From positions 17,210 to 81,209 of the forward strand of contig CALVXZ010000001.1 of the NCBI GenBank assembly GCA_944371785.1: 64,000 nt of DNA, given 5' to 3'. The notes beneath the pieces were generated by a model. That model was not told where the DNA came from. It was given only the letters and a program-made list of their open reading frames with translations, and made no database searches. This document shows positions 3,760-31,124 of the stretch, in pieces (within the stretch, counting starts at the first letter, position 1; every line of letters starts with the position of its first letter). The DNA comes from an uncultured Clostridia bacterium (GTDB taxonomy: Bacteria > Bacillota > Clostridia > Christensenellales > DTU072). The translations under genes and the position numbers were made by a program.

Positions 3760-5924
3760 CTTTCCTCGTCCGGACGGGCGGAAGTTTCCGCCTGCCTGGA
3801 TTCCGTTTTCGCCGTTCTGCCCTTTTGATCCATCATCTCGTAAAAAGGCACTCTGGTCCCGCATTCGGGATTCGTGCATACGAATATCCTTTCGTTGCCT
3901 TCCTTTCTGACCCTCATCTGCTTTCCGCAAACGGGGCATTTTATCTTTTCGGGCACTTCCCAGCTCATATATTTGCAATCAGGGTAGTCGGAACAGCCGT
4001 AAAACACCTTTCCGGCTTTGGACCTGCGTTTATAAACTTCGGCTCCGCATAGCGGACAATACCCCACGGGTTCGTCGAGGCTCTTTATGTTCTTGCACTT
4101 CGGATAATTAGGACAAGCCAGGAATTTTCCGTATTTGCTTTCCTTTATCACCATTTTCGCGCCGCATTTTTCGCATATGACGTCGCTGACTTCTTCCTGT
4201 TTCGGCAGCCTCTTTACGCCGGCGTAGCCCGCGTCTTTCAATTCGCGTTCAAAACCGGGATAAAAATCCTCTATCGTCTTCTGCCATTCGGAACCGTGTT
4301 CTATTTCGTCCAATTTCTGTTCCATATCGGCTGTAAAATGGATATCGACGATGTTTTTGAACCATTCTTCCATAAACTCGGTGACCTGTTCGCCCAAAGG
4401 AGTTGGTTTGAACAGCTTTTGTTCTTTCACGACGTATTCGCGCTTTGTCAGCACCGAAATGACCGTGGCGTAAGTGGACGGGCGCCCTATTCCGTTTTCT
4501 TCCATCGCCTTTATCAGCGTGGCTTCGGAATACCTGGGCTGCGGTTTAGTGAATTTCTGTTCGCACTTTACATCCTTTTTGCGGAGCGGTTCGCCCTCTT
4601 TCAGATCGGGTAAGGAGCTGTTTTCGGAACCGTCTTCTTCCTTCTTTTCGATATCGTATACCGCCGTAAACCCTTTGAAGATCAACGCTTTGCCGCTGAC
4701 TTTGAATCCGTATTCGACGTCGGAAACGGCTTTTACCCGCACGTTCATTGTGTTGTAAACCGCCTCGGACATCTGGCTTGCGAGATAGCGGTCGTAGATC
4801 AGCTTGTAAAGCCTGTAATGATTCTTTTGAAGTTTGTCTTTCAGGCTTTCCGGGGTCCTTTGGAGGTTGACGGGACGGATGGCTTCATGCGCGTCCTGTA
4901 CGTTCTGACCCTTTGAAGCGTAAAAATTAGGTTTTTCGGGCACATAATCGGCGCCGTAGTTTTTGGCGATATAATCGCGCGTAGCGGCTTGCATTTCCGC
5001 GGATATGCGGACGGAGTCCGTCCTGATATAAGTCACCAACGCCGTCTGACCTTCTCCCGGAATGTCCACGCCTTCGTAAAGCTGTTGCGCGATCTGCATG
5101 ATCTGCGGAGAGGATAACCCCAGCTTCTGAGAGCCGTCCTGCTGCAGAGTCGAAGTCGTGAACGGCGGCGCCGGATGCGAACGTTGAACGCTGCGTTTTA
5201 CCGTGTCGACGGACCAATCGGACCTTTCCAGCCTCTCCATTATAACGTCGACTTGTTCTTTGTTTTCTGGCTTTAGTTTCTTTCCGCCGATATCCTGCAG
5301 GAGCGCTTTGAATACGGGGGACTGCGTGCCCTGTTTTAACAACGAAGCCGTTACAGTCCAATATTCTTTCGGCACGAAGACGCGGATCTCGCGTTCGCGG
5401 TCGACTATCATTTTCAATGCCGCCGATTGCACCCTGCCGCCTGAAAGTCCGCTTTTTATCTTCCTTGAAAGTATGGGGCTGACTTTATAGCCCACCAATC
5501 TGTCCAACACTCTCCGCGCCTGTTGGGCGTTGACGAGGTTCATATTGATTTCCCTGGGGCTTTCGATCGCGCGGTTTACGGCTTTGGAAGTGATCTCGTT
5601 GAATTCGATACGGTTTTGCCTGCCCAACAATCCCAAATAGTTGGCAAGATGCCAGCTGATGGCTTCTCCTTCGCGGTCCGGGTCGGTCGCAAGGAAAGTA
5701 AATTCGGAGGCTTTGACTTCGTCTTTCAGCCGTTTTATCAATTCCTTTTTCTTTGAATCGGACACGACGTATTCGGGTTTGAAGCGGTTTTCTATATCGA
5801 TACCCAAAGTCTTTGCGGGCAGATCGCAAATATGTCCGCCCGACGCCATTACTCTGAATCCGCTGCCCAGATACTTTTGGATTGTCTTTGCCTTGGAAGG
5901 CGATTCCACGATTACTAACTTCAT
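3756..5924 (-). CDS. topA: DNA topoisomerase I
   Basis: 722 aa. Toprim N-terminus MKLVIVESPSKAKTIQKYLG, catalytic-Tyr context YIRTDS, and several C-terminal CxxC zinc ribbons. Confidence 0.95.
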   Translation of the reverse strand: MKLVIVESPSKAKTIQKYLGSGFRVMASGGHICDLPAKTLGIDIENRFKPEYVVSDSKKKELIKRLKDEVKASEFTFLATDPDREGEAISWHLANYLGLLGRQNRIEFNEITSKAVNRAIESPREINMNLVNAQQARRVLDRLVGYKVSPILSRKIKSGLSGGRVQSAALKMIVDREREIRVFVPKEYWTVTASLLKQGTQSPVFKALLQDIGGKKLKPENKEQVDVIMERLERSDWSVDTVKRSVQRSHPAPPFTTSTLQQDGSQKLGLSSPQIMQIAQQLYEGVDIPGEGQTALVTYIRTDSVRISAEMQAATRDYIAKNYGADYVPEKPNFYASKGQNVQDAHEAIRPVNLQRTPESLKDKLQKNHYRLYKLIYDRYLASQMSEAVYNTMNVRVKAVSDVEYGFKVSGKALIFKGFTAVYDIEKKEEDGSENSSLPDLKEGEPLRKKDVKCEQKFTKPQPRYSEATLIKAMEENGIGRPSTYATVISVLTKREYVVKEQKLFKPTPLGEQVTEFMEEWFKNIVDIHFTADMEQKLDEIEHGSEWQKTIEDFYPGFERELKDAGYAGVKRLPKQEEVSDVICEKCGAKMVIKESKYGKFLACPNYPKCKNIKSLDEPVGYCPLCGAEVYKRRSKAGKVFYGCSDYPDCKYMSWEVPEKIKCPVCGKQMRVRKEGNERIFVCTNPECGTRVPFYEMMDQKGRTAKTESRQAETSARPDEER

Positions 5925-7031
5925 TTAATTTGCTCCGTAACAGTTGTTTTCGGCTTTATATATCAACCCGAGGATCTCCATGGTCGCAAGCGTTGCGTTC
6001 AGCTCCGCGACTTTCATTCCCGTTATCATCATCAGTTCTTCGAAATGAGCATTGCCCTTTTTCAACCTTTCGATAATAGTTTTTTGCATGCCGTCCACGG
6101 CTATAGCCGGTTCGGACTTAGATTTGTATCTGAGCCCCAGCCCGGATATCACAGTTTCGGGAGAAACGGCTATCGCGCCCTGCAGCCTTTCCAGGTAAGC
6201 GTTGCCGCCCTTTCCGTATCTGTTGAATATCGAATGCGGCACTATATACAGTTCTTTGCCCTGTTCCAGCGCGTAATTGGCGGTGATCAGCGAACCGCTT
6301 TTGACGCTTGAAGCCTCCGGCACCAATACCGCTTTCGACAAACCGGAAACGATGCGGTTCCTTTCGGGAAAGTGGAAGGGCAGCGCCGAAGTCCCCGGGC
6401 AGTATTCGCTGAGGATAAGCCCGTTCTTTTTGATTATTTCTTCGTACAGATACCGGTTTTGCGAAGGATACGGGATATCCGCTCCGTTACCCAGGACCGC
6501 TATCGTCTTTCCTCCGTTTTTCAGTGCGACGGAGTGCGCTTTCGAATCCACGCCCCTGGCAAGTCCGCTGACAACGGTAACGGAATGCCTGACAAGCGCT
6601 TCCGTAAAGATTTCCGTCGCGCGTTCGCCGTCGTGGCTGACGGATCTGCTGCCGACTACCGCGACGCAAAGCGTTTTCATCAGTTTTACGTCCCCGATAG
6701 CGTACAGCACCGCCGGAGGAACGTCTATTTTCGTCAGACTGTCGGGATATTCTTCGTCGCCGTAAAACACCGCCTGTATCCCTTTGGAATACATCAGTCC
6801 GATCACTTTGTCGATCTGCCTTTCGTCGGGAACGCAAGCGGCCATTCTGTTTGCCGTAGCGTCCGCCAACACCGCGCCTTTCAAAGACAGCGCGCTTTCG
6901 GGGCGCATATAGAGTTCCGCGACGTCCGCCCCGGACAGAGTTAACGCCGCAAGCGCCTGTCTGGACAGCCCGGCGCCCGTTTGCAACCATATCGTCGCTC
7001 TCAATAACTTTTCCCTGTCGCCGTTACGCAT
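5925..7031 (-). CDS. dprA: DNA-processing protein DprA (Smf)
   Basis: 368 aa. GSRSVS...GLARGVDSKAHSVAL Rossmann-like DprA core. Abuts the topA start with no gap. Confidence 0.9.
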   Translation of the reverse strand: MRNGDREKLLRATIWLQTGAGLSRQALAALTLSGADVAELYMRPESALSLKGAVLADATANRMAACVPDERQIDKVIGLMYSKGIQAVFYGDEEYPDSLTKIDVPPAVLYAIGDVKLMKTLCVAVVGSRSVSHDGERATEIFTEALVRHSVTVVSGLARGVDSKAHSVALKNGGKTIAVLGNGADIPYPSQNRYLYEEIIKKNGLILSEYCPGTSALPFHFPERNRIVSGLSKAVLVPEASSVKSGSLITANYALEQGKELYIVPHSIFNRYGKGGNAYLERLQGAIAVSPETVISGLGLRYKSKSEPAIAVDGMQKTIIERLKKGNAHFEELMMITGMKVAELNATLATMEILGLIYKAENNCYGAN

Positions 7032-23368: not shown

Positions 23369-24232
23369 TCAACCGAATGTAGTAAATGCGCTGGCGCCGG
23401 AGGGTAAAACGACGTTTTTCCTGCCGGTAGGCAATGCCAGCTCGTATGCTTCGGTATTACCTCTGCCGTTCAATGCTATGTCTATTATGTTTTTCGTCAC
23501 CGTGGGCTGCAGCCCCGTCGTGTACGAATTTATCAGGAAAAACAGCGGATCGTCGGACAATAGCGTCACGGTCTTTTTGACGAAATCGAACACGGTGTCT
23601 TCCAACTTCCATATCTCGCCTTTCGGACCCCTGCCGTAGCTGGGAGGATCCATAATCACCGCGTCGTAACGGTTTCCGCGGCGGATCTCACGTTCTACGA
23701 ATTTGATACAATCGTCCACTATGTAACGCATCGCCTTCTGCCCGAGCCCCGAAAGTACGGCGTTTTTGCCGGCGCGTTCGCACATCGCCTTCGCCGCGTC
23801 AACGTGAGTCACTTCGGCGCCTTCCTTTGCGCAAGCCACCGACGCACCTCCGGTATAAGCAAACAGATTCAGGACCTTTATCCGTCTGCCGGACGATTTT
23901 ATCAGATTCCGCATCTTAGACCAATTATATGCCTGTTCGGGGAATATACCGGTGTGCTTAAAGCCCATAAGCTTCAATACGAACCTCAGATCTTTCCAGG
24001 ATATCTCAAATTCGTCCGGAACTTTTTTCAGGTATTCCCAGCTGCCGCCGCCGGATCTGGATCTGCGGTAAACGGCGCTGAGTCCCGGGTATTTTTCCAT
24101 ATCGAAAGGCGCTTCCCATATCACCTGCGGATCGGGGCGCAGCAAGACGACAGATCCGAAGCGTTCCAATTTCATTCCGCCGCCGGTTTCTATGACTTCG
24201 TAATCTTTCCAATCGGATGCGAGAGCTATCAT
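23369..24232 (-). CDS. Class I SAM-dependent (rRNA-type, RlmI/YccW-like) methyltransferase
   Basis: The ORF track extends to 24445, but the ATG at 24232 (MIALASDWKDYEVIETGGG) overlaps the upstream stop as ATGA. LNLFAYTGGASVACA SAM motif and VIMDPPSYGRG. Confidence 0.8.
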   Translation of the reverse strand: MIALASDWKDYEVIETGGGMKLERFGSVVLLRPDPQVIWEAPFDMEKYPGLSAVYRRSRSGGGSWEYLKKVPDEFEISWKDLRFVLKLMGFKHTGIFPEQAYNWSKMRNLIKSSGRRIKVLNLFAYTGGASVACAKEGAEVTHVDAAKAMCERAGKNAVLSGLGQKAMRYIVDDCIKFVEREIRRGNRYDAVIMDPPSYGRGPKGEIWKLEDTVFDFVKKTVTLLSDDPLFFLINSYTTGLQPTVTKNIIDIALNGRGNTEAYELALPTGRKNVVLPSGASAFTTFG

Positions 24233-27024
24233 TGTTCGCTGTCGTCGTTTTGCAATATCTCTGTCGCCAAAGATTCGTATGCGGAGGTGTTGTCGATATT
24301 TTTCAGTACCGACCAGAATTCTTTCGCGTCGGTCTTGTGGTTTTCCCTGGCAAGCAGCCTGATTATGTTTATCAAACCGAATATAAGTTCGTGTCTGACG
24401 GCGTTTCTGGCGTTCTTGAAATCGGCGTAATCCAATTCCGTACAAAGATCGCCTTTATACAGCCTCAATATATTCCGCATGATCCGCACTTTTTCGGGAA
24501 GCGATTCGGTTTCCGAAAAATCGCGGCTCAGTTTCAAAAACCTGTGGTAGTCGCAGTTCAGATCTTCCAGGTGCAATACGTAAGTGGAGTTTATATATTC
24601 CAATTTAAACTTTATACCGTACTGCGTAAGCGTTTTCCTGATAATGTTGTTCGTGGTTTTCAGATTGTTTATCGCGGAATCGTAAACGTAGTCTTTCCAC
24701 ATATAATCGATGATGGCGTTGCGGTCCATACCGTTTTCGCCGGCAAGAATATAATACAGGAACAGTTCCTTGGATTTCCTGGTCTTCCATTGTATTTCCT
24801 TGCCGTGAGAAGTTATCGAAGTGACTCCGGCACCAAGCATCGTCACGTTCAGAATGCCCATATCGCTGCCGGAACCGTTTTTGGAATCTATCAGAGCCTT
24901 TATCTTCGATACGATCTCCGGTTCGATATTGTGCGATTCGGCTTCCTGTATGATGGGACCGAAAACCGCGGTATCGGTCAGCACCATTCGCATACCGTAA
25001 TTTTCGCTGCACCTTAAAATATTAGTCACTATGGAATCGACGTCGCGTATCCCGCCCTTCGCCAACAGACAGTTCGCCGCAAGTCCCATACTGTATAACC
25101 ATACGAACGAACGGTTTTCCGCCGCGTCTATCGCCAAGGTAGCGGCTTTGTAGCTTCTGGCGCGGTTGCCCTCTTTCAACGCAGCGTACGAATAGATCTG
25201 GAACATCATCGAACGGTATTTCGGCGCCATTGCTTCGGATTCGTGCAGATACAGATTCGCAAGTTTTTCGGCATAGGCGACGCGGTTGAACAAACAGTTC
25301 AGATAACACCTGACATATACCGTGAAATATCTTTCGAAGCCGAAATCACCCGTCATCATACTGCCGTATGCGAGATCGGAATATTTCAAAGCCGATTCCT
25401 CGTTGCCGTAGAAACTTTCCATCAACGCTTTAACCGAATACAGCATATGGATATCGTTGAACAGAGAGTTGTTTATAGCGTAGCTTAAAGCCTCGTCGAC
25501 CAGACTCTTCGTGCGTTTCAGATCGCCGTCGAAATAGTTCATGGCGATTATCCTTAACGGCACGACGTACAGAGGGAAGAGTTTCTTTATCCTCTCCGCC
25601 GTTTCCATCGATTTTCTGTAATTGCCTATACCGAAATAATAAGTTTCGATGTTTTCCATCAGCTTCAGCGACCAGAAATGTTCGTCGCCGCCGGGCGCGT
25701 TCAACGCCGCTTCAGCCTCCGAAACCGAAATTTTCCCGTGTCTCAGAGAATCGGGAGTGATATATTGCAAAACTTTCAGATAAAAAGCATCGTCGCCCGT
25801 AAATTGTTCCTTCAGACCGACGAAAAACGAATTCAGCGTTTCGATATCGCCTTTTTTCAGCATACAATATATTTTCAGATAGTTCGCGCACGCGACGGAA
25901 CGCGTGGTGCCTACCTTTTTCAACGATTCGATGATCCTGTCCGTTTCCTTTAACGCAAGATCGTAATTTTTATCCCGTTTGGCAAGTATGCACGCTCCCA
26001 ACAAAGCGGTAAACGGATATTCGGCGGGATCCGCGGATATCTGCATATCCAGGTGCGCCGCGATAAAATTCATAGAGTTGATGATCTCCTCGTCGGAACC
26101 GATTATCTTCTCCAAAGTCCTGTTCATCATCCCTGCGTCGCCGTGATCGTACGCAAAAGTCAATGCGTCGTAAGACGAGACGTGTCGGAAAAGATATTCG
26201 AACAGCCTGGATTCGACGGGAACGCCGACATAATCTCCCATATGGTGATTCAGCTGTCTGTCCCTTCCGGATAAATAATCCACGAGCTCCCTTTTCAGGA
26301 CATAGAATCCGCATCCCGAAGTATGCTTGCATTCGGTAAGATAACCGCCGTGCGCACGGCACAGCGCGTTGAGTCTGGGAATAGATTCTGGGGAAATTTC
26401 GTTCAGGATCCCGACGGGGAAAGCACCGTATTTACCTATATATTTCAACAAAGCGACGTCCTCTATCGGCACCGCCGTAAGATACATTTCCGGAGTGCAG
26501 AATTCGGAAGACGGCGGCAGAGAATCCTTATCGATAATACCGGGGCATTTGGGTTCCAATTTGACAACCGGGATATTCAGATAACAATCCGAAGACATCA
26601 CGACGCGCACGTTGGAAGGCGCTTTGGAAATCAAATAGACGTATTTTTCGAAAGTGCAGTCTTTGGAAAGCAGTTCCAGCCTTTCAAAAATCAAAAGTAC
26701 GTTCTTTTCCAACGATTTAAGATAATCCAGAACGACGCGGATACCGACGTCGGAACCGTTGTATTTGGAATCGCAGAACAGAATCTGTTTTATGCGCAAA
26801 AGTTTCGCGGGCTGATCGGAAAGAACTTTTTCCGCCAAAGTTATACAAAGCTGTCTTAGGTCGTCGACAGCGGCGTTGAACCTGTAACAATATTCGAATT
26901 TTTCGGACAGCTCCTGTAAAAAGCCTTCTTTGTCGTATTCGGACGGGGCAAACAAGAAAGTCGCCGTCTGATCCGACGCCACAATATCGTTAATCAAAGC
27001 GCTTATGCCCGTTTCAAGCTTCAT
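24229..27024 (-). CDS. Large SARP-type transcriptional regulator: P-loop-less N-domain, TPR-like repeats, C-terminal OmpR-type wHTH plus BTAD
   Basis: 931 aa. The C-terminal ~230 aa are LNVTMLGAGVTSITSHGKEIQWKTRKSKELFLYYILAGENGMDRNAIIDYMWKD...NNLKTTNNIIRKTL...YVLHLEDLNCDYHRFLKL...LRLYKGDL. This follows the SARP pattern of wHTH followed by a bacterial transcriptional activator domain. The middle is helical-repeat-like. No GxxxxGK[ST] motif is seen. Confidence 0.85.
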   Translation of the reverse strand: MKLETGISALINDIVASDQTATFLFAPSEYDKEGFLQELSEKFEYCYRFNAAVDDLRQLCITLAEKVLSDQPAKLLRIKQILFCDSKYNGSDVGIRVVLDYLKSLEKNVLLIFERLELLSKDCTFEKYVYLISKAPSNVRVVMSSDCYLNIPVVKLEPKCPGIIDKDSLPPSSEFCTPEMYLTAVPIEDVALLKYIGKYGAFPVGILNEISPESIPRLNALCRAHGGYLTECKHTSGCGFYVLKRELVDYLSGRDRQLNHHMGDYVGVPVESRLFEYLFRHVSSYDALTFAYDHGDAGMMNRTLEKIIGSDEEIINSMNFIAAHLDMQISADPAEYPFTALLGACILAKRDKNYDLALKETDRIIESLKKVGTTRSVACANYLKIYCMLKKGDIETLNSFFVGLKEQFTGDDAFYLKVLQYITPDSLRHGKISVSEAEAALNAPGGDEHFWSLKLMENIETYYFGIGNYRKSMETAERIKKLFPLYVVPLRIIAMNYFDGDLKRTKSLVDEALSYAINNSLFNDIHMLYSVKALMESFYGNEESALKYSDLAYGSMMTGDFGFERYFTVYVRCYLNCLFNRVAYAEKLANLYLHESEAMAPKYRSMMFQIYSYAALKEGNRARSYKAATLAIDAAENRSFVWLYSMGLAANCLLAKGGIRDVDSIVTNILRCSENYGMRMVLTDTAVFGPIIQEAESHNIEPEIVSKIKALIDSKNGSGSDMGILNVTMLGAGVTSITSHGKEIQWKTRKSKELFLYYILAGENGMDRNAIIDYMWKDYVYDSAINNLKTTNNIIRKTLTQYGIKFKLEYINSTYVLHLEDLNCDYHRFLKLSRDFSETESLPEKVRIMRNILRLYKGDLCTELDYADFKNARNAVRHELIFGLINIIRLLARENHKTDAKEFWSVLKNIDNTSAYESLATEILQNDDSEQ

Positions 27025-27053
27025 TCGTTCTCCTGCTCATTACCCTTTTCACA

Positions 27054-27092
27054 ACTATAATTTGGTAAATATATTGTAAATTAATCGTAAAT
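27054..27092 (-). promoter_or_regulatory. Promoter/operator of the SARP gene: -10 TATAGT preceded by three 11-bp-phased ATTTAC direct repeats
   Basis: Plus-strand GTAAAT occurs at 27065-27070, 27076-27081 and 27087-27092. The minus strand reads ATTTAC-N5-ATTTAC-N5-ATTTAC-caaat-TATAGT (27059-27054), followed 29 nt later by the ATG, with an AGGAGA RBS. Confidence 0.45.
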
Positions 27093-27263
27093 AAAAGTCA
27101 AGTGAATTCTCAGTGAACGTTGACGTTTTAATGAAAAATTCGACTAAGCACGCGCTATATTCGTTAGTAGCTTTGTTTTTATTGTGTTTTTTTCGGTAAA
27201 ACTTTTTCGTCTTAAACCGCTCACATTGCCGCCTTCTGCCGAATATATTGAGTCGAGGTGACA

Positions 27264-27512
27264 ATGAATATAAACGATTATATCCGCAAAAAAAGCCGAA
27301 ACAACCTCTCGCCCGAAGAAGCCGTCAAAAAATACGCCGCAATGGACGAACAGAGCCTGATGTCGGAGCTTTTCAAGACGGCGGCGGAAGGCAGAGCGTC
27401 GGGAGAACTCACCGACGAGGTCATAGACAATTTCTATACGACGGTGGCTCCGATGCTTTCCCCGGAACAATCCGAACGTATGCGCGAACTCATCCGCGAA
27501 CTAAAAAAATAG
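27264..27512 (+). CDS. Small charged helical protein of unknown function (82 aa)
   Basis: MNINDYIRKKSRNNLSPEEAVKKYAAMDEQSLMSELFKTAAEGRASGELTDEVIDNFYTTVAPMLSPEQSERMRELIRELKK. GAGGTG lies just upstream of the ATG at 27264. The ORF track start at 27258 is GTG. Its stop is 3 nt before the next ATG. Confidence 0.6.
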   Translation: MNINDYIRKKSRNNLSPEEAVKKYAAMDEQSLMSELFKTAAEGRASGELTDEVIDNFYTTVAPMLSPEQSERMRELIRELKK

Positions 27513-27515
27513 GTT

Positions 27516-27920
27516 ATGGATATTTCATCTCTGTTACCGCTGCTATTGATGCAAAACGGGTTGTTTTCGGGAAAGGATTCGTCGGGCGGAATGAACGCCG
27601 CGGACCTGATGCGACTTTTCGGGGCAATGAACGGCGGATCTAAAAATCCGTTTTCCGAAATGTTCGGAAACGCCGCTAACTTCGGATCGGGGACTTCGCC
27701 GTTTGCCAATATGTTCGGCAACAATCCGTTTTCGGGGGCATTCGGCAAAAACTCCGGATCCGCGGAACGGAATAACGGCGGATTCGGTAAAAGCGCCTAC
27801 CGCGCCGAAGAAAACCGCGGATATTCGTACAACAAGGACAACCCTTCGAAAGACAATCTGAACGCGATGTTCCCCGAAGAATTGTTGAAAATGCTGCGCA
27901 ACTTAAACCGCGGAAGATAG
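27516..27920 (+). CDS. FG/Asn/Gly-rich low-complexity protein of unknown function (134 aa)
   Basis: Hydrophobic N-terminus MDISSLLPLLLMQNGLF, then repeated xFGx units (LFGA, MFGN, NFGS, MFGN, AFGK, GFGK), then a basic C-terminus. Translationally coupled to the 82-aa ORF. Confidence 0.55.
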   Translation: MDISSLLPLLLMQNGLFSGKDSSGGMNAADLMRLFGAMNGGSKNPFSEMFGNAANFGSGTSPFANMFGNNPFSGAFGKNSGSAERNNGGFGKSAYRAEENRGYSYNKDNPSKDNLNAMFPEELLKMLRNLNRGR

Positions 27921-27940
27921 AAAATATAAGTGCCGAAAAC

Positions 27941-27960
27941 AAAAAAAGCGCCCTGAGCGC
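27941..27960 (-). terminator. Intrinsic terminator of the candidate sRNA
   Basis: Minus strand reads GCGCU-CAG-GGCGC followed by UUUUUUU. Confidence 0.6.
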
Positions 27961-28135
27961 GACCGATCCGTGGGACTAAGTAATAACAAACCCGCGTATG
28001 TGCAGGTGGGCGAACTGTCGCTCCCTTTTGTCTTCCCCTGGCGTCGGACAAAGTCCGGGGGGCTTGACATTATGAGCCGAACGCGTAAGCCCTTTTGGAT
28101 GTTAGGGTTCCACACGCTTAGCCCCACATCTCGGC
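27941..28135 (-). ncRNA. Candidate ~195-nt structured small RNA (class unassigned; 6S-like size and closing helix)
   Basis: Predicted +1 G at 28135, 7 nt after a TATAAT box. The 5' segment GUGGGGCUAAG (28127-28117) pairs with CUUAGUCCCAC (27980-27970). An outer GCCGA/UCGGU helix also forms. Each helix contains a G.U pair that would be an A.C mismatch on the plus strand. Internal hairpin CGGAC-UUU-GUCCG (28057-28045). Ends in a GC hairpin plus U7. Confidence 0.6.
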
Positions 28136-28141
28136 AAAATT

Positions 28142-28170
28142 ATTATAGCACATATCTTTTTAATTGTAAA
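28142..28170 (-). promoter_or_regulatory. Near-consensus sigma-A promoter of the candidate sRNA
   Basis: Minus strand: TTTACA (28170-28165), a 17-nt spacer ending in TGc (extended -10), then TATAAT (28147-28142). Confidence 0.65.
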
Positions 28171-28184
28171 TACCCAATTTTTCG

Positions 28185-28204
28185 GGCGCGGAAACCGCCT
28201 TTTT
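28185..28204 (+). terminator. Weak plus-strand terminator-like hairpin beyond the sRNA gene
   Basis: GGCG-CGGAAAC-CGCC followed by TTTTT. The only plus-strand transcripts that could reach it come from the small-ORF pair. Confidence 0.35.
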
Positions 28205-28244
28205 CAGCCAAGGCAAAACATAAAAACCCGTTTAAGCCAAAGCG

Positions 28245-29471
28245 TTATTTTACGTCTTTGTCCGTTTCCGGCGCGTCCTCGGATTTATCGTAATCGCCGG
28301 ATTTATCGGAGTCTTCGGTTCCGACTTTTTCCGCGTCGAGATTTTCGGTCTTTTCGCCGTTCTCGTCAATCTGCAGAGAATTGTCGGACGCAGCCGTTTT
28401 GTCGGCTTTTATGAATGGATACAGACGGGTCATTTTTTTATTCGTTATCTTCTTTTTATAGACCGCTATTCCCGCCGAAAGGTAAGCCGCGATAATCAAC
28501 GCCGCGACGCATCCGATCGCGATTCCTGCGATTTCGCCTCCCGAAAGCTGTTTTTCGGGTGCCGCAACTATCGTAATTACAGCCGTCATCGATTCCGGCG
28601 CGTTATGGTTTCCGTCGGGCAGGAACGTCGCGGTGACGGTATGGCTCCCGACTTCCACGGCGTCGTTACCGGAATAAATCACCTGCAATCCTTCCGGAAC
28701 GCTGCCTGAAACGAAGATCGATTTAGCATTGCCGTCATAGGTAAATTCCGCGTCGGAAAAGATCACGCCGCTCATATCGTAATCTACCTTTTCGATGATC
28801 AGTTTGCAGGTTATGTTCAGATCGAAATAATTCGGATCGTCGATGTCGAACAACAGACGGATAAAGTTTTCCCCCGCGGGATAAACCGTGTCGCCGGGAA
28901 ATGTCGGGGCTACTGTCAGATACCCGTTTTCGAATTCCGGCAGCGGCGTCCTGTCGATAATCTGTTGCAGAGTTTCGCCGTATACTCCGGTAAACATAAA
29001 TCCGCTCAGCCCCGGAAAGCCGCCGTACGCGCGGTAAATTTTATAATCGGCGGTGACCGTCGTTTCGGGAACGCCCCCTATTTCGGGAATGGTAACGTAA
29101 ATAACGTAGTCCCCCGCGTTTTCGGGAAGCCCCGGCTGAATATCGCCGGCAACTCCGTCCGTAACGGGCGCGAAGGCAAACGACATCGAAGAATAATCCG
29201 TTTTGTTTCCGGAAAAATCGGTTATGACGAAATCCACGCCCGGTTCTATGGGTTCGCCGTCGTAATAGGGTTCTGTCAAAGGATCGAAATTTTCCGTCGG
29301 CAGAGAAAACACATAATCCGTTTCGTCCGCGGCGGCGTTACCTGCCGGCGTGCGCGGCGGGGCGAAAGCCGCAAACAACGCAAGCGCCGACAAGATCAAA
29401 ATCAAAGACGCGACCGCCGAAAAAACGGCGATCGCCCTTACGGATTCAGATTTCCGAACGTAACCGCGCAT
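28245..29471 (-). CDS. Surface protein with an MBG/Ig-like repeat region, an N-terminal signal anchor and a C-terminal TM plus acidic tail
   Basis: 408 aa. N-terminal anchor AIAVFSAVASLILILSALALFAAFA. YDGNAKSIFVSGSVPEGLQVIYSGNDAVEVGSHTVTATF is an MBG-type motif. C-terminal TM segment IAGIAIGCVAALIIAAYLSAGIAVY, then an Asp/Glu/Lys tail. Confidence 0.8.
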   Translation of the reverse strand: MRGYVRKSESVRAIAVFSAVASLILILSALALFAAFAPPRTPAGNAAADETDYVFSLPTENFDPLTEPYYDGEPIEPGVDFVITDFSGNKTDYSSMSFAFAPVTDGVAGDIQPGLPENAGDYVIYVTIPEIGGVPETTVTADYKIYRAYGGFPGLSGFMFTGVYGETLQQIIDRTPLPEFENGYLTVAPTFPGDTVYPAGENFIRLLFDIDDPNYFDLNITCKLIIEKVDYDMSGVIFSDAEFTYDGNAKSIFVSGSVPEGLQVIYSGNDAVEVGSHTVTATFLPDGNHNAPESMTAVITIVAAPEKQLSGGEIAGIAIGCVAALIIAAYLSAGIAVYKKKITNKKMTRLYPFIKADKTAASDNSLQIDENGEKTENLDAEKVGTEDSDKSGDYDKSEDAPETDKDVK

Positions 29472-29486
29472 TCTTGGATCAGTTTG

Positions 29487-31124
29487 CTACAGCGAGAAAT
29501 TCAAAGTCTTTCTTTCGCCGTTTTCGATATATTTTACGGTAAAGTAATTGTTGTCAGAGCGTTCGGCGGAGATTATCATCGCGTTGGATTTTTCAAAAGT
29601 ATCCGTCAGCAGTTTCAATTGTTCTTCGTTGAACGTGCCCACGTCGTCGGAGACGAACAATACGTTTCCGAACAGATGGTTGATCTTTGCCAGAAGCTGT
29701 TTCTGTTCCTTCGTGAAGCGCAGGTTGTAATCCCTTACAAAGAACACGTCGGGATCGTTGCAGAACGCTCTGCCGTCCAAGTGACGTCTGAAGACGGTGG
29801 ATATCATCGCGTTCTTGGCGGAAGGGATCTCGTTGGTCAGGTTGATACGGTTGTGGAATCTGTCTTTGAAGCTTAAAGCGACGTCACAGCTTATCCTGCA
29901 GGCGTCGACTATTCCGAAAGCCGATCCCAAAGGCACGCCGCAACCCAATAAAAGCTTGTCGCCCACGCATTCGCGTAAGAATTCCATAGCGTCCGCCATA
30001 ATCTTTCCGCGCGTCAGTCCGTTTCTGGGGAACATACACTGCGAATACAGGAAGTCCAATTTGACCATATCGTAGCCCCATTCGTTCAATATCACGTTAA
30101 AGAAGTTGCGGATGTGTTCCCTGACTTCCTCGTTGTAGATATCCAACGTATAGGCTCCGCCCCAGCCCGGGCAGCCCAGAACGGGTTTGCCGGCGGCGTC
30201 TTTTATCAGCCAATCGGGGTGTTCGTTAGCGGTACGCGAAACGCGCTGTACGTTGAAGGGAGCCAACCATATCCCCGCCAAAAAGCCTTTTTCGTGGATG
30301 CTGTCGGCAATAAATTTCATACCGCGCGGGAATTTTTCCGAAGGATCCAGCCAATCCCCTACGAAAGTTTCGTACCCGTCGTCCACCTGGAACACGTTCA
30401 CGGAATCGGAAACTTTGGAAATTCCTTCGAGGTCGCGCAAAATAATCTTTTCGTCGATCTTTTGGAAATAGTTATACCAGCTGGTATACCCTGCCATATG
30501 ATCTATCCTGGGCTTCGGTACGCCCATTCTGCGGAAATATTCTTCGAAGACTTCGTCGTATTTGCCTTTGATACGCACCACGTTCATCAGCTCGTAGGAC
30601 GTTCCGGACGGCACTTCCGCGCCGGCAACGTCCTTGGTAATGACGAAACTGCCTTCGTCCATTCCGACGTAAAACACCGTAAAGCCGCTGCTTTCGTTCA
30701 AGGAACCGTATAGCTCCACGTCGTCTTCCAACCTGAAATAACAGTATGTAAAAGAATGAAAATTACCGCGCTTGGAGGAATACTTCGTAAAGTTGTAGTC
30801 CCCTGCCGGAGTAGCCAGCTTTCTGCCTATCGGCAGCAACCTGACAATGGCGGGTAAACCTTTTTGTTTGTCGTCGGCGGTGTATTCCGCCGAAGTCGTC
30901 CACGATTGGTAACCGTTCGAGAAAAAACGTTCCTCGTTGACGCACTTGCGGTTATAACTCAACGAAAAAGATATCAATTCCAGCTTCTCTTTCGGAGTAA
31001 TGACCGTTTTTATACCGCTTTCGTCGGCTTTTTCCTCTATGACGTAATGTTCGTTCTGGTATAAATCGTCCTCGTAGATCCTGCCTCCGAAACGGTATTT
31101 GATGTGCATTCTTTTTTCTTTCAT
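29487..31124 (-). CDS. Clan GH-D glycoside hydrolase (GH36-like alpha-galactosidase)
   Basis: 545 aa. FQVDDGYETFVGDW, GFLAGIWLAPF and YDMVKLDFLY (K-x-D nucleophile context). No signal peptide. Confidence 0.75.
   Translation of the reverse strand: MKEKRMHIKYRFGGRIYEDDLYQNEHYVIEEKADESGIKTVITPKEKLELISFSLSYNRKCVNEERFFSNGYQSWTTSAEYTADDKQKGLPAIVRLLPIGRKLATPAGDYNFTKYSSKRGNFHSFTYCYFRLEDDVELYGSLNESSGFTVFYVGMDEGSFVITKDVAGAEVPSGTSYELMNVVRIKGKYDEVFEEYFRRMGVPKPRIDHMAGYTSWYNYFQKIDEKIILRDLEGISKVSDSVNVFQVDDGYETFVGDWLDPSEKFPRGMKFIADSIHEKGFLAGIWLAPFNVQRVSRTANEHPDWLIKDAAGKPVLGCPGWGGAYTLDIYNEEVREHIRNFFNVILNEWGYDMVKLDFLYSQCMFPRNGLTRGKIMADAMEFLRECVGDKLLLGCGVPLGSAFGIVDACRISCDVALSFKDRFHNRINLTNEIPSAKNAMISTVFRRHLDGRAFCNDPDVFFVRDYNLRFTKEQKQLLAKINHLFGNVLFVSDDVGTFNEEQLKLLTDTFEKSNAMIISAERSDNNYFTVKYIENGERKTLNFSL

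Follow-up and report, generated by a model that had tools for sequence, protein, structure and literature searches.

The locus studied here is chromosomal and belongs to an uncultured Clostridia bacterium known from gut metagenomes, a host related to Candidatus Stercoripulliclostridium; the whole 64-kb stretch that was analyzed is called the window below. The gene order comprises ligA, a CDP-alcohol phosphatidyltransferase gene, valS, and a gene for a ParA-like ATPase, followed by genes for an M50 peptidase, a GH36 alpha-galactosidase (29487-31124, minus strand), and a 408-aa membrane protein, and then by the RNA described here, a convergent small ORF, and the gene of a 931-aa protein without a Pfam match. 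Gene callers had placed nothing at the RNA site in six contigs from this species (L001-L006), all of which carry an identical RNA and were thus set aside as uninformative for conservation. The 931-aa protein (24229-27024, minus strand) is 61 to 83% identical and syntenic in three congeneric genomes, and its gene lies immediately upstream of one for a SAM-dependent methyltransferase. The convergent gene (27516-27920, plus strand), whose 3' end abuts the terminator of the RNA, encodes a low-complexity protein of 109 to 134 aa, rich in Gly, Asn, and Phe, which has no Pfam match and is only 55% identical in L007. The window carries valS and ligA, yet it gave no Rfam match at gathering cut-offs and no tRNA; ARAGORN detected neither a tRNA nor a tmRNA in the 64 kb. 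Upstream of valS, no T-box leader was called in the window at the Rfam gathering cut-offs, which is unusual for a Firmicute.

The features of the RNA locus are listed here from the promoter to the terminator, with RNA positions counted from the predicted +1.

28165..28170, minus strand: -35 hexamer TTTACA of the ssrS promoter (promoter scan; conserved in relatives)
28142..28150, minus strand: extended -10 element TGcTATAAT (promoter scan; conserved in relatives)
27941..28135, minus strand: predicted primary transcript of 6S RNA, 195 nt, from +1 at G28135 to the end of the U7 run (ends inferred)
28117..28135, minus strand: 5' arm of the closing stem, RNA 1-19, consisting of GCCGA, GA, and UGUGGGGCUAAG (pairing, covariation)
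28105..28109, minus strand: 5' strand AACCC of P2, the "downstream duplex," RNA 27-31 (paired with GGGUU in the Rfam 6S alignment)
28093..28104, minus strand: 5' strand of the central bubble, UAACAUCCAAAA, RNA 32-43 (unpaired in the consensus structures)
28066..28092, minus strand: 5' strand of the internal (apical-arm) stem, RNA 44-70 (97 to 100% paired, seven compensatory pairs)
28035..28061, minus strand: apical element with a CCCC/GGGG helix, a CGGAC-UUU-GUCCG hairpin, and an ACGCCA internal loop, RNA 75-101
28008..28032, minus strand: 3' strand of the internal stem, RNA 104-128, including GAGCGACAGUUCGCCC (comparative structures)
27990..28007, minus strand: 3' bubble strand (RNA 129-142) and alternative hairpin ACCUGC/GCGGGU (129-134 with 141-146)
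27962..27980, minus strand: 3' arm of the closing stem, RNA 156-174, consisting of CUUAGUCCCACG, GA, and UCGGU (pairing, covariation)
27941..27960, minus strand: intrinsic terminator GCGCU-CAG-GGCGC followed by U7 (terminator scan)

The initial annotation had described a stand-alone transcription unit on the minus strand, with a promoter TTTACA-17 nt-TGcTATAAT and a terminator GCGCU-CAG-GGCGC followed by U7 (27960-27941), and both signals proved to be present and to be kept in relatives. The promoter is near consensus, matching 11 of 12 consensus positions plus the TG across a spacer of 17 nt, and was the best promoter-like site that the promoter scan returned in 27000-29000; the predicted +1, G28135, lies 7 nt past the -10 element. 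The promoter (-35 and TGnTATAAT element) stood at a fixed distance from the RNA 5' end in all 10 relatives compared. The -35 hexamer TTTACA was unchanged in eight of them (TTGCAA and TTGAAA in the other two), and TGnTATAAT was found in nine, the exception being L047 with TGcTAAACT. Between congeners the two hexamers were invariant, and the spacer and the upstream DNA had diverged. Just past the closing stem, a hairpin and U-run of unrelated sequence were present in 8 of the 10 relatives. The 3' end of the mature RNA probably lies near 27962 or within the terminator.

We compared the locus with the Rfam families, as had been proposed initially. No match reached a gathering cut-off, and the best sub-threshold match on the minus strand was to 6S RNA (RF00013; 16.6 bits, E of 0.3, model positions 38-149, cut-off 46.4 bits), with a local alignment that spanned the bubble and the whole apical arm and omitted the closing arm. 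The nine closest relatives among the matches listed also fell below the RF00013 cut-off, and L020, L030, L031, L036, L083, L007, and L010 gave no 6S match to Rfam even at an E of ≤1, so the Rfam score shows no gradient inside the sub-clade. Weak matches to other families, namely, tmRNA on the plus strand (13.9 bits), PK-BYV, rimP, P24, and Bacteroidales-2, were dismissed.

A search with nhmmer, with the window RNA as the query, returned clear homologues in seven relatives, among the matches listed: L083 (an uncultured Clostridia bacterium that matches L008; E of 1.5e-43), L049 (uncultured Eubacteriales SI.O39, 7014..6819; E of 2.1e-33), L020, L030, and L036 (Candidatus Stercoripulliclostridium; E of about 1e-27 to 1e-30), L031 (Clostridia bacterium from sheep rectum; E of 2.1e-27), and L047 (Clostridiales bacterium DTU072, 4050..4242; E of 6e-11). 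Two of these pass the curated cut-off, with RF00013 scores of 60.8 bits for L049 and 65.5 bits for L047 over model positions 1-187, and the 6S RNA of L085 scored 68.7 bits. Since L049 and L047 are nhmmer relatives of the window RNA and at the same time accepted 6S RNAs, the window RNA is part of an unbroken series of homologues, the more canonical of which reach the curated cut-off, and is homologous to curated members of the family. The nucleotides that make up the 6S signature (GAxCC, GGG, AAGCC, GGAAG.C..AA, CCCACCU, and GGxU) are found in it flanking the bubble or in the apical arm.

The same relationship was approached through a search pattern built from positions conserved in the RF00013 alignment, AAGCCC N8-38 GGGAAGNCNNAA N8-28 CCCACCTG, applied to one genome per species; in short form the signature, taken from the window RNA, reads AAGCCC..GGGAAGnCnnAA..CCCACCTG. 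The scan gave at least 119 loci, and the taxa among the matches listed included Rokubacteria/Methylomirabilota, Myxococcales, Legionella, Nitrospirae, Desulfosporosinus, Paenibacillaceae, Brevibacillus, Lachnospiraceae, and others. Rfam was run at gathering cut-offs on 19 of these loci, and 6S was called at the pattern site in 13, L049 and L047 among them; no call came from the other six, of which five were the closest relatives and the sixth was an Arthrobacter locus. Outside the immediate clade, and with the Arthrobacter locus set aside, RF00013 thus exceeded its cut-off at the exact site in 13 of 13 tested loci. In the reverse direction we used two covariance models. R1, built on the rod structure from four near-identical congeneric sequences, scored L049 at 166.8, L047 at 65.4, and L085 at 37.8 bits and was too narrow to reach other phyla. 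The clade model R2 gave full-length matches at the Rfam 6S coordinates in L021, L022, L071, L058, and L016 (E of 6e-5 to 1e-3), scores that arise partly by construction, these loci having been chosen by a pattern common to the window RNA; it scored L047 at 125 bits and L085, a member of the R2 alignment and scored by construction, at 108 bits.

We conclude, with a probability of about 93%, that the RNA is the 6S RNA (ssrS) of this uncultured gut Clostridia bacterium, a stand-alone unit that folds into a rod and presumably sequesters sigma-A polymerase. The initial annotation had judged it not assignable to a known class by inspection and had remarked on its 6S-like size and end-to-end helix. 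The remark was correct, and homology together with the covarying rod described below supplies the assignment; the RNA seemed unclassifiable because RF00013 scores this lineage below its cut-off. With homology to a known family in hand, it is real and not novel: it is a further member of the 6S family, from a poorly sampled lineage, and implies no new biology.

The candidate seat of the Rfam shortfall lies in the closing arm, which is left out of the Rfam alignment. Over about 146 nt, comprising the bubble strands, the internal stem, and the apical arm, L049 is almost identical to the window RNA, and L049 and L047 share with it the extended -10 promoter, the terminator arrangement, and the rod. 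Their closing arm, in contrast, has a wholly different sequence, which still pairs, and on the 5' side the window RNA has a few nucleotides fewer between its closing stem and AACCC. L049, with the same core and a closing arm nearer the consensus, gains about 44 bits on RF00013. The window RNA scores 16.6 bits, against 60.8 and 65.5 bits for L049 and L047, probably because of its different closing arm, which stays unaligned, and its shorter 5' side. This constitutes a blind spot of RF00013, in which a whole sub-clade stays below the cut-off although its bubble and apical arm nearly match those of sequences above it. Alignment A5, made of 11 sequences and described below, could extend the Rfam 6S seed, its value being mainly for Rfam curation.

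We regard it as doubtful that a separate subtype of 6S, remodelled in its closing arm and junction and systematically escaping RF00013, is carried by the window genus together with Candidatus Stercoripulliclostridium and related gut Clostridia. If it were, its function might differ, for example in polymerase affinity, in release kinetics, or as one of two paralogues, and annotation of 6S in this uncultured clade would at a minimum be incomplete. It is even less probable, indeed very unlikely, that the RNA is a paralogue or drifted derivative, for example a second copy of the 6S-2 type or an Ms1-like binder of core polymerase, in place of the canonical 6S RNA. The whole sub-clade formed by the window genus, Stercoripulliclostridium, and RGIG6434 does score below the Rfam cut-off, the portion of the genome examined was 64 kb, and some Firmicutes have two 6S RNAs (PMC10578484). 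Against a paralogue speaks the near identity of the bubble, internal stem, and apical arm to those of L049, a canonical full-length 6S, and neither R1 nor R2 found a second copy in the window or in the compared loci. As for Ms1, it is an actinobacterial 6S-like rod that binds RNA polymerase (PMC9130861). Ms1 binds the core enzyme and is not known outside Actinobacteria; the likeness to the window RNA is that of two 6S-like rods, with no match in sequence or to any Rfam model of such a family.

For the 6S RNA identified by homology, we then asked which fold is conserved. The single-sequence minimum free energy (MFE) fold of the 195 nt is multibranched, with paired ends and an energy of -75.8 kcal/mol, as the initial annotation had read the interior. 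The z-score of folding was -2.7 on the RNA strand and -2.2 on the opposite strand; because these values are modest, folding energy alone is unconvincing. On the window sequence an unbranched rod has an energy of -71.5 kcal/mol, or -74.4 kcal/mol with a small extra hairpin, and so lies 1.4 to 4.3 kcal/mol above the MFE. Because these energies do not discriminate, the choice between the two folds was left to comparative data.

RNAalifold predicted an unbranched rod both from the four congeneric sequences and from 10 sequences aligned with MAFFT without a model; in the latter run 12 of the 40 predicted pairs, in the internal stem and the apical hairpin, were compensatory. The closing stem is too divergent for MAFFT, and its arms were therefore tested alignment-free by duplex energy. 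An arm gave -17 to -30 kcal/mol with its own partner or that of a close relative and mostly -5 to -15 kcal/mol with the arms of other lineages. These two results are the model-independent evidence. On A5, in which the 11 sequences were fitted to the rod model (R1), so that pair counts are biased towards the rod, 97.1% of cells were paired (37 to 45% in slid controls) and 27 of 48 pairs were changed on both sides (5 to 11 in slid controls), 15 of the 17 closing-stem pairs among them; none of 500 shuffles reached the observed values. The rod helices were 97 to 100% paired on A5, with many compensatory pairs, versus 70 to 82% and at most one compensatory pair for the helices specific to the multibranched fold, including the GCGA-CAGU-UCGC hairpin. 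An apparent covariation of G58 with C119 (RNA numbering) in four sequences is ambiguous, as C119 can also pair with G54, and was not relied on. The data thus support an unbranched rod, composed of the closing stem, P2, the central bubble, an interrupted internal stem, and the apical hairpin, as the conserved fold; the multibranched interior is a feature of the single-sequence MFE only. With a covarying rod and a length of about 174 nt when counted through the closing stem, or 195 nt with the terminator, the RNA has the size and the fold of a 6S RNA.

These results leave hardly any room for a novel, multibranched class of trans-acting small RNA, or for the raiA-type RNA that had been suggested. 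The MFE structure and the lack of an Rfam family at cut-off fit such a class, but its specific helices are the poorly conserved ones, the rod is within a few kcal/mol of the MFE, homologues of the RNA pass the 6S cut-off, and raiA was absent from the Rfam matches in 27850-28260 even up to an E of 10.

The anatomy of the rod agrees in most respects with the helices proposed initially. In the closing helix, GUGGGGCUAAG (28127-28117) pairs with CUUAGUCCCAC (27980-27970), and the proposed 11 bp extend to 12 bp when U8-G167 is included; with the outer helix GCCGA/UCGGU, the closing stem totals 17 bp. The strand argument, that the G.U pairs would be A.C on the other strand, holds for three pairs, G1-U174, U8-G167, and G14-U161. 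P2 bounds the bubble on the closing-stem side, with 98% of cells paired and one compensatory change (L085). In the apical element, the CGGAC-UUU-GUCCG hairpin, which had been described together with the flanking C and G runs, is present and has four of its five pairs compensatory, and the CCCC/GGGG helix is invariant. The GCGA-CAGU-UCGC hairpin is likewise present in the sequence and is not conserved. The single-sequence fold puts GAGCGACAGUUCGCCC into a local hairpin that is 82% paired and has no compensatory change; it mis-assigns this segment, which belongs to the internal stem. The 8-mer reported to occur twice, CAAAAGGG, does have two copies (28097-28090 and 28030-28023), but they stand in two different structural contexts and the repeat looks incidental. 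The 3' strand of the central bubble is ACCUGCACAUACGC, and CCCACCUG, within the 3' bubble region, is part of the 6S signature. The alternative hairpin overlaps the 3' strand of P2, GGGUU (RNA 143-147, window 27993-27989).

We also determined how the RNA and its surroundings are conserved. Counted from +1 through the closing stem, the nucleotide identity of the RNA is 91.5 to 95.4% in three congeneric genomes, in which the GH36 gene is 74 to 82% and the flanks of the RNA 48 to 68% identical, a contrast that speaks for selection on the RNA. L007, L008/L009, and L010, with GH36 proteins 89%, 76%, and 73% identical, all carry the RNA, and no copy was found nearby in L011/L012, with a GH36 protein 63% identical. 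Synteny through the GH36 gene extends only to the genus, and outside it no neighbour of the RNA is shared. The 6S cassette is inverted relative to its neighbours in L008 (6399-6574, minus strand), L009 (6361-6536, minus strand), and L083 (3361-3543, minus strand), compared with 27941-28135 in the window. In this congeneric species, the inverted cassette directly follows the GH36 gene and precedes the gene of a 228-aa Flg_new-domain protein. In the window and in L007, the 6S gene follows that of the 408/383-aa membrane protein and has the same orientation as GH36; L010 is without this membrane protein gene. Because its neighbours are shared only within the genus, the RNA fits a trans-acting housekeeping RNA.

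The conserved same-strand linkage on the upstream side of a gene that marks a riboswitch or leader was not found here. As had been noted initially, the only ORF on the RNA strand starts with GTG; it spans 27903..28127 and encodes 74 aa. The apical loop, compared with that of the window, is 2 nt longer in L010 and 3 nt longer in L008, and because of these indels no reading frame is conserved. That the RNA is a leader or riboswitch acting in cis, or that this ORF is a small protein gene, has next to no probability, for the terminator follows straight after the RNA and the gene beyond it is convergent, L008/L083 have the cassette in inverted orientation, its linkage to the neighbours is lost outside the genus, the loop indels break the frame, and the substitutions are paired, as in an RNA helix; the initial view that the RNA has no target in cis thus stands.

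The identification as 6S RNA invites comparison with the known systems. E. coli 6S (SsrS) is close to the window RNA in size and shares the rod and its central bubble, and in the Rfam alignment the motif classes GAxCC...GGG, AAGCC...GGAAG, and CACCU...GGGUU are kept between the two, with low overall identity. The window RNA is a stand-alone promoter-to-terminator unit, unlike E. coli 6S, which arises by processing of a longer transcript shared with ygfA. Bacillus subtilis, which has 6S-1 (BsrA) and 6S-2 (BsrB), is likewise a Firmicute with sigma-A polymerase. In general, 6S RNA is a rod of about 160 to 200 nt with a central bubble; it mimics an open promoter, binds the holoenzyme with the housekeeping sigma factor, and templates short product RNAs, which unwind the helix next to the bubble, refold the 6S RNA, and release the enzyme (PMC8876501, PMC8414754). 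The hallmarks of the product RNAs are an adenine beside the start on the template, GG at positions 5/6, and AA at positions 9/10 (PMC8414754).

In the window RNA, AACCC(27-31)/GGGUU(143-147) and ACCUGC(129-134)/GCGGGU(141-146) share G143-U146 and are mutually exclusive. Each of the two helices is at least 95% paired across relatives, and they hardly vary, so that covariation cannot choose between them. The refolding potential of a 6S RNA is thus present, as a potential of the sequence. This layout would be the arrangement expected for a release switch: re-pairing of the P2 3' strand into a 3'-bubble hairpin after unwinding of P2 is the release switch of the E. coli type (PMC8876501), with a hairpin of 6 bp in the window RNA versus 9 bp in E. 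coli. The free window RNA is also predicted to form a small hairpin in its 3' bubble, as 6S-1 does (PMC8876501). In the comparison with B. subtilis, inspection of the window RNA revealed no convincing "central bubble collapse helix."

By analogy with these systems we infer polymerase binding, product-RNA synthesis, its start site, and the physiological role, and the most likely function would be sequestration of sigma-A polymerase with release by product-RNA synthesis. The RNA would be transcribed from its strong extended -10 sigma-A promoter and end at the intrinsic terminator. The rod would then mimic an open promoter and fill the active-site cleft of the sigma-A RNA polymerase holoenzyme, and this sequestration would damp housekeeping transcription when nutrients are low. 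On return of the NTPs, the polymerase would use the 5' bubble strand as a template, starting at C35 (window 28101), a site suggested by the Rfam alignment and by the product-RNA hallmarks (PMC8414754). The predicted product RNA, 5'-GUUAGGGUUCCACAC (beginning 5'-GUUAGGGUUCC), would unwind AACCC/GGGUU and so free GCGGGU to pair with ACCUGC; once this hairpin had formed in the 3' bubble, the polymerase would be released. Initiation at C35 would make A36 the following template base and give a product RNA that begins with G and carries GG at positions 5/6, as in 6S-1 and in lactic acid bacteria (PMC8414754). The third hallmark, AA at product-RNA positions 9/10, is absent, in which the window RNA differs from the B. 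subtilis RNAs, and in L030/L036 the base beside the predicted start is U, not A.

Two further observations were made on loci met during the searches. The Arthrobacter matches of the signature scan were set aside as 6S candidates, being unrelated chance matches to the pattern. They mark a 77-nt stretch that is (near-)identical in at least 10 Arthrobacter species (L015, 2350-2426, plus strand; further loci in L027, L048, L056, L078, L090, L097, L100, L110, and L120), with the sequence AAGCCCACCGCTATATGAAGGCTGAAGGTTAACAGGGAAGACGCAAATATCCA(C/T)(A/G)ATACGGCAAATCAACCCACCTG, just upstream of a 456-aa ORF. The stretch matched neither Rfam at cut-off nor the 6S clade model, and its folding energy was unremarkable (z-score of +1.6); it is a conserved intergenic element. 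The second observation concerns L085, a Bacillota metagenome-assembled genome, in which the Rfam-confirmed 6S RNA (6727-6906, plus strand) starts 9 nt after a tRNA gene (6645-6718, plus strand), an arrangement that suggests co-transcription with the tRNA and processing, unlike the stand-alone unit of the window.
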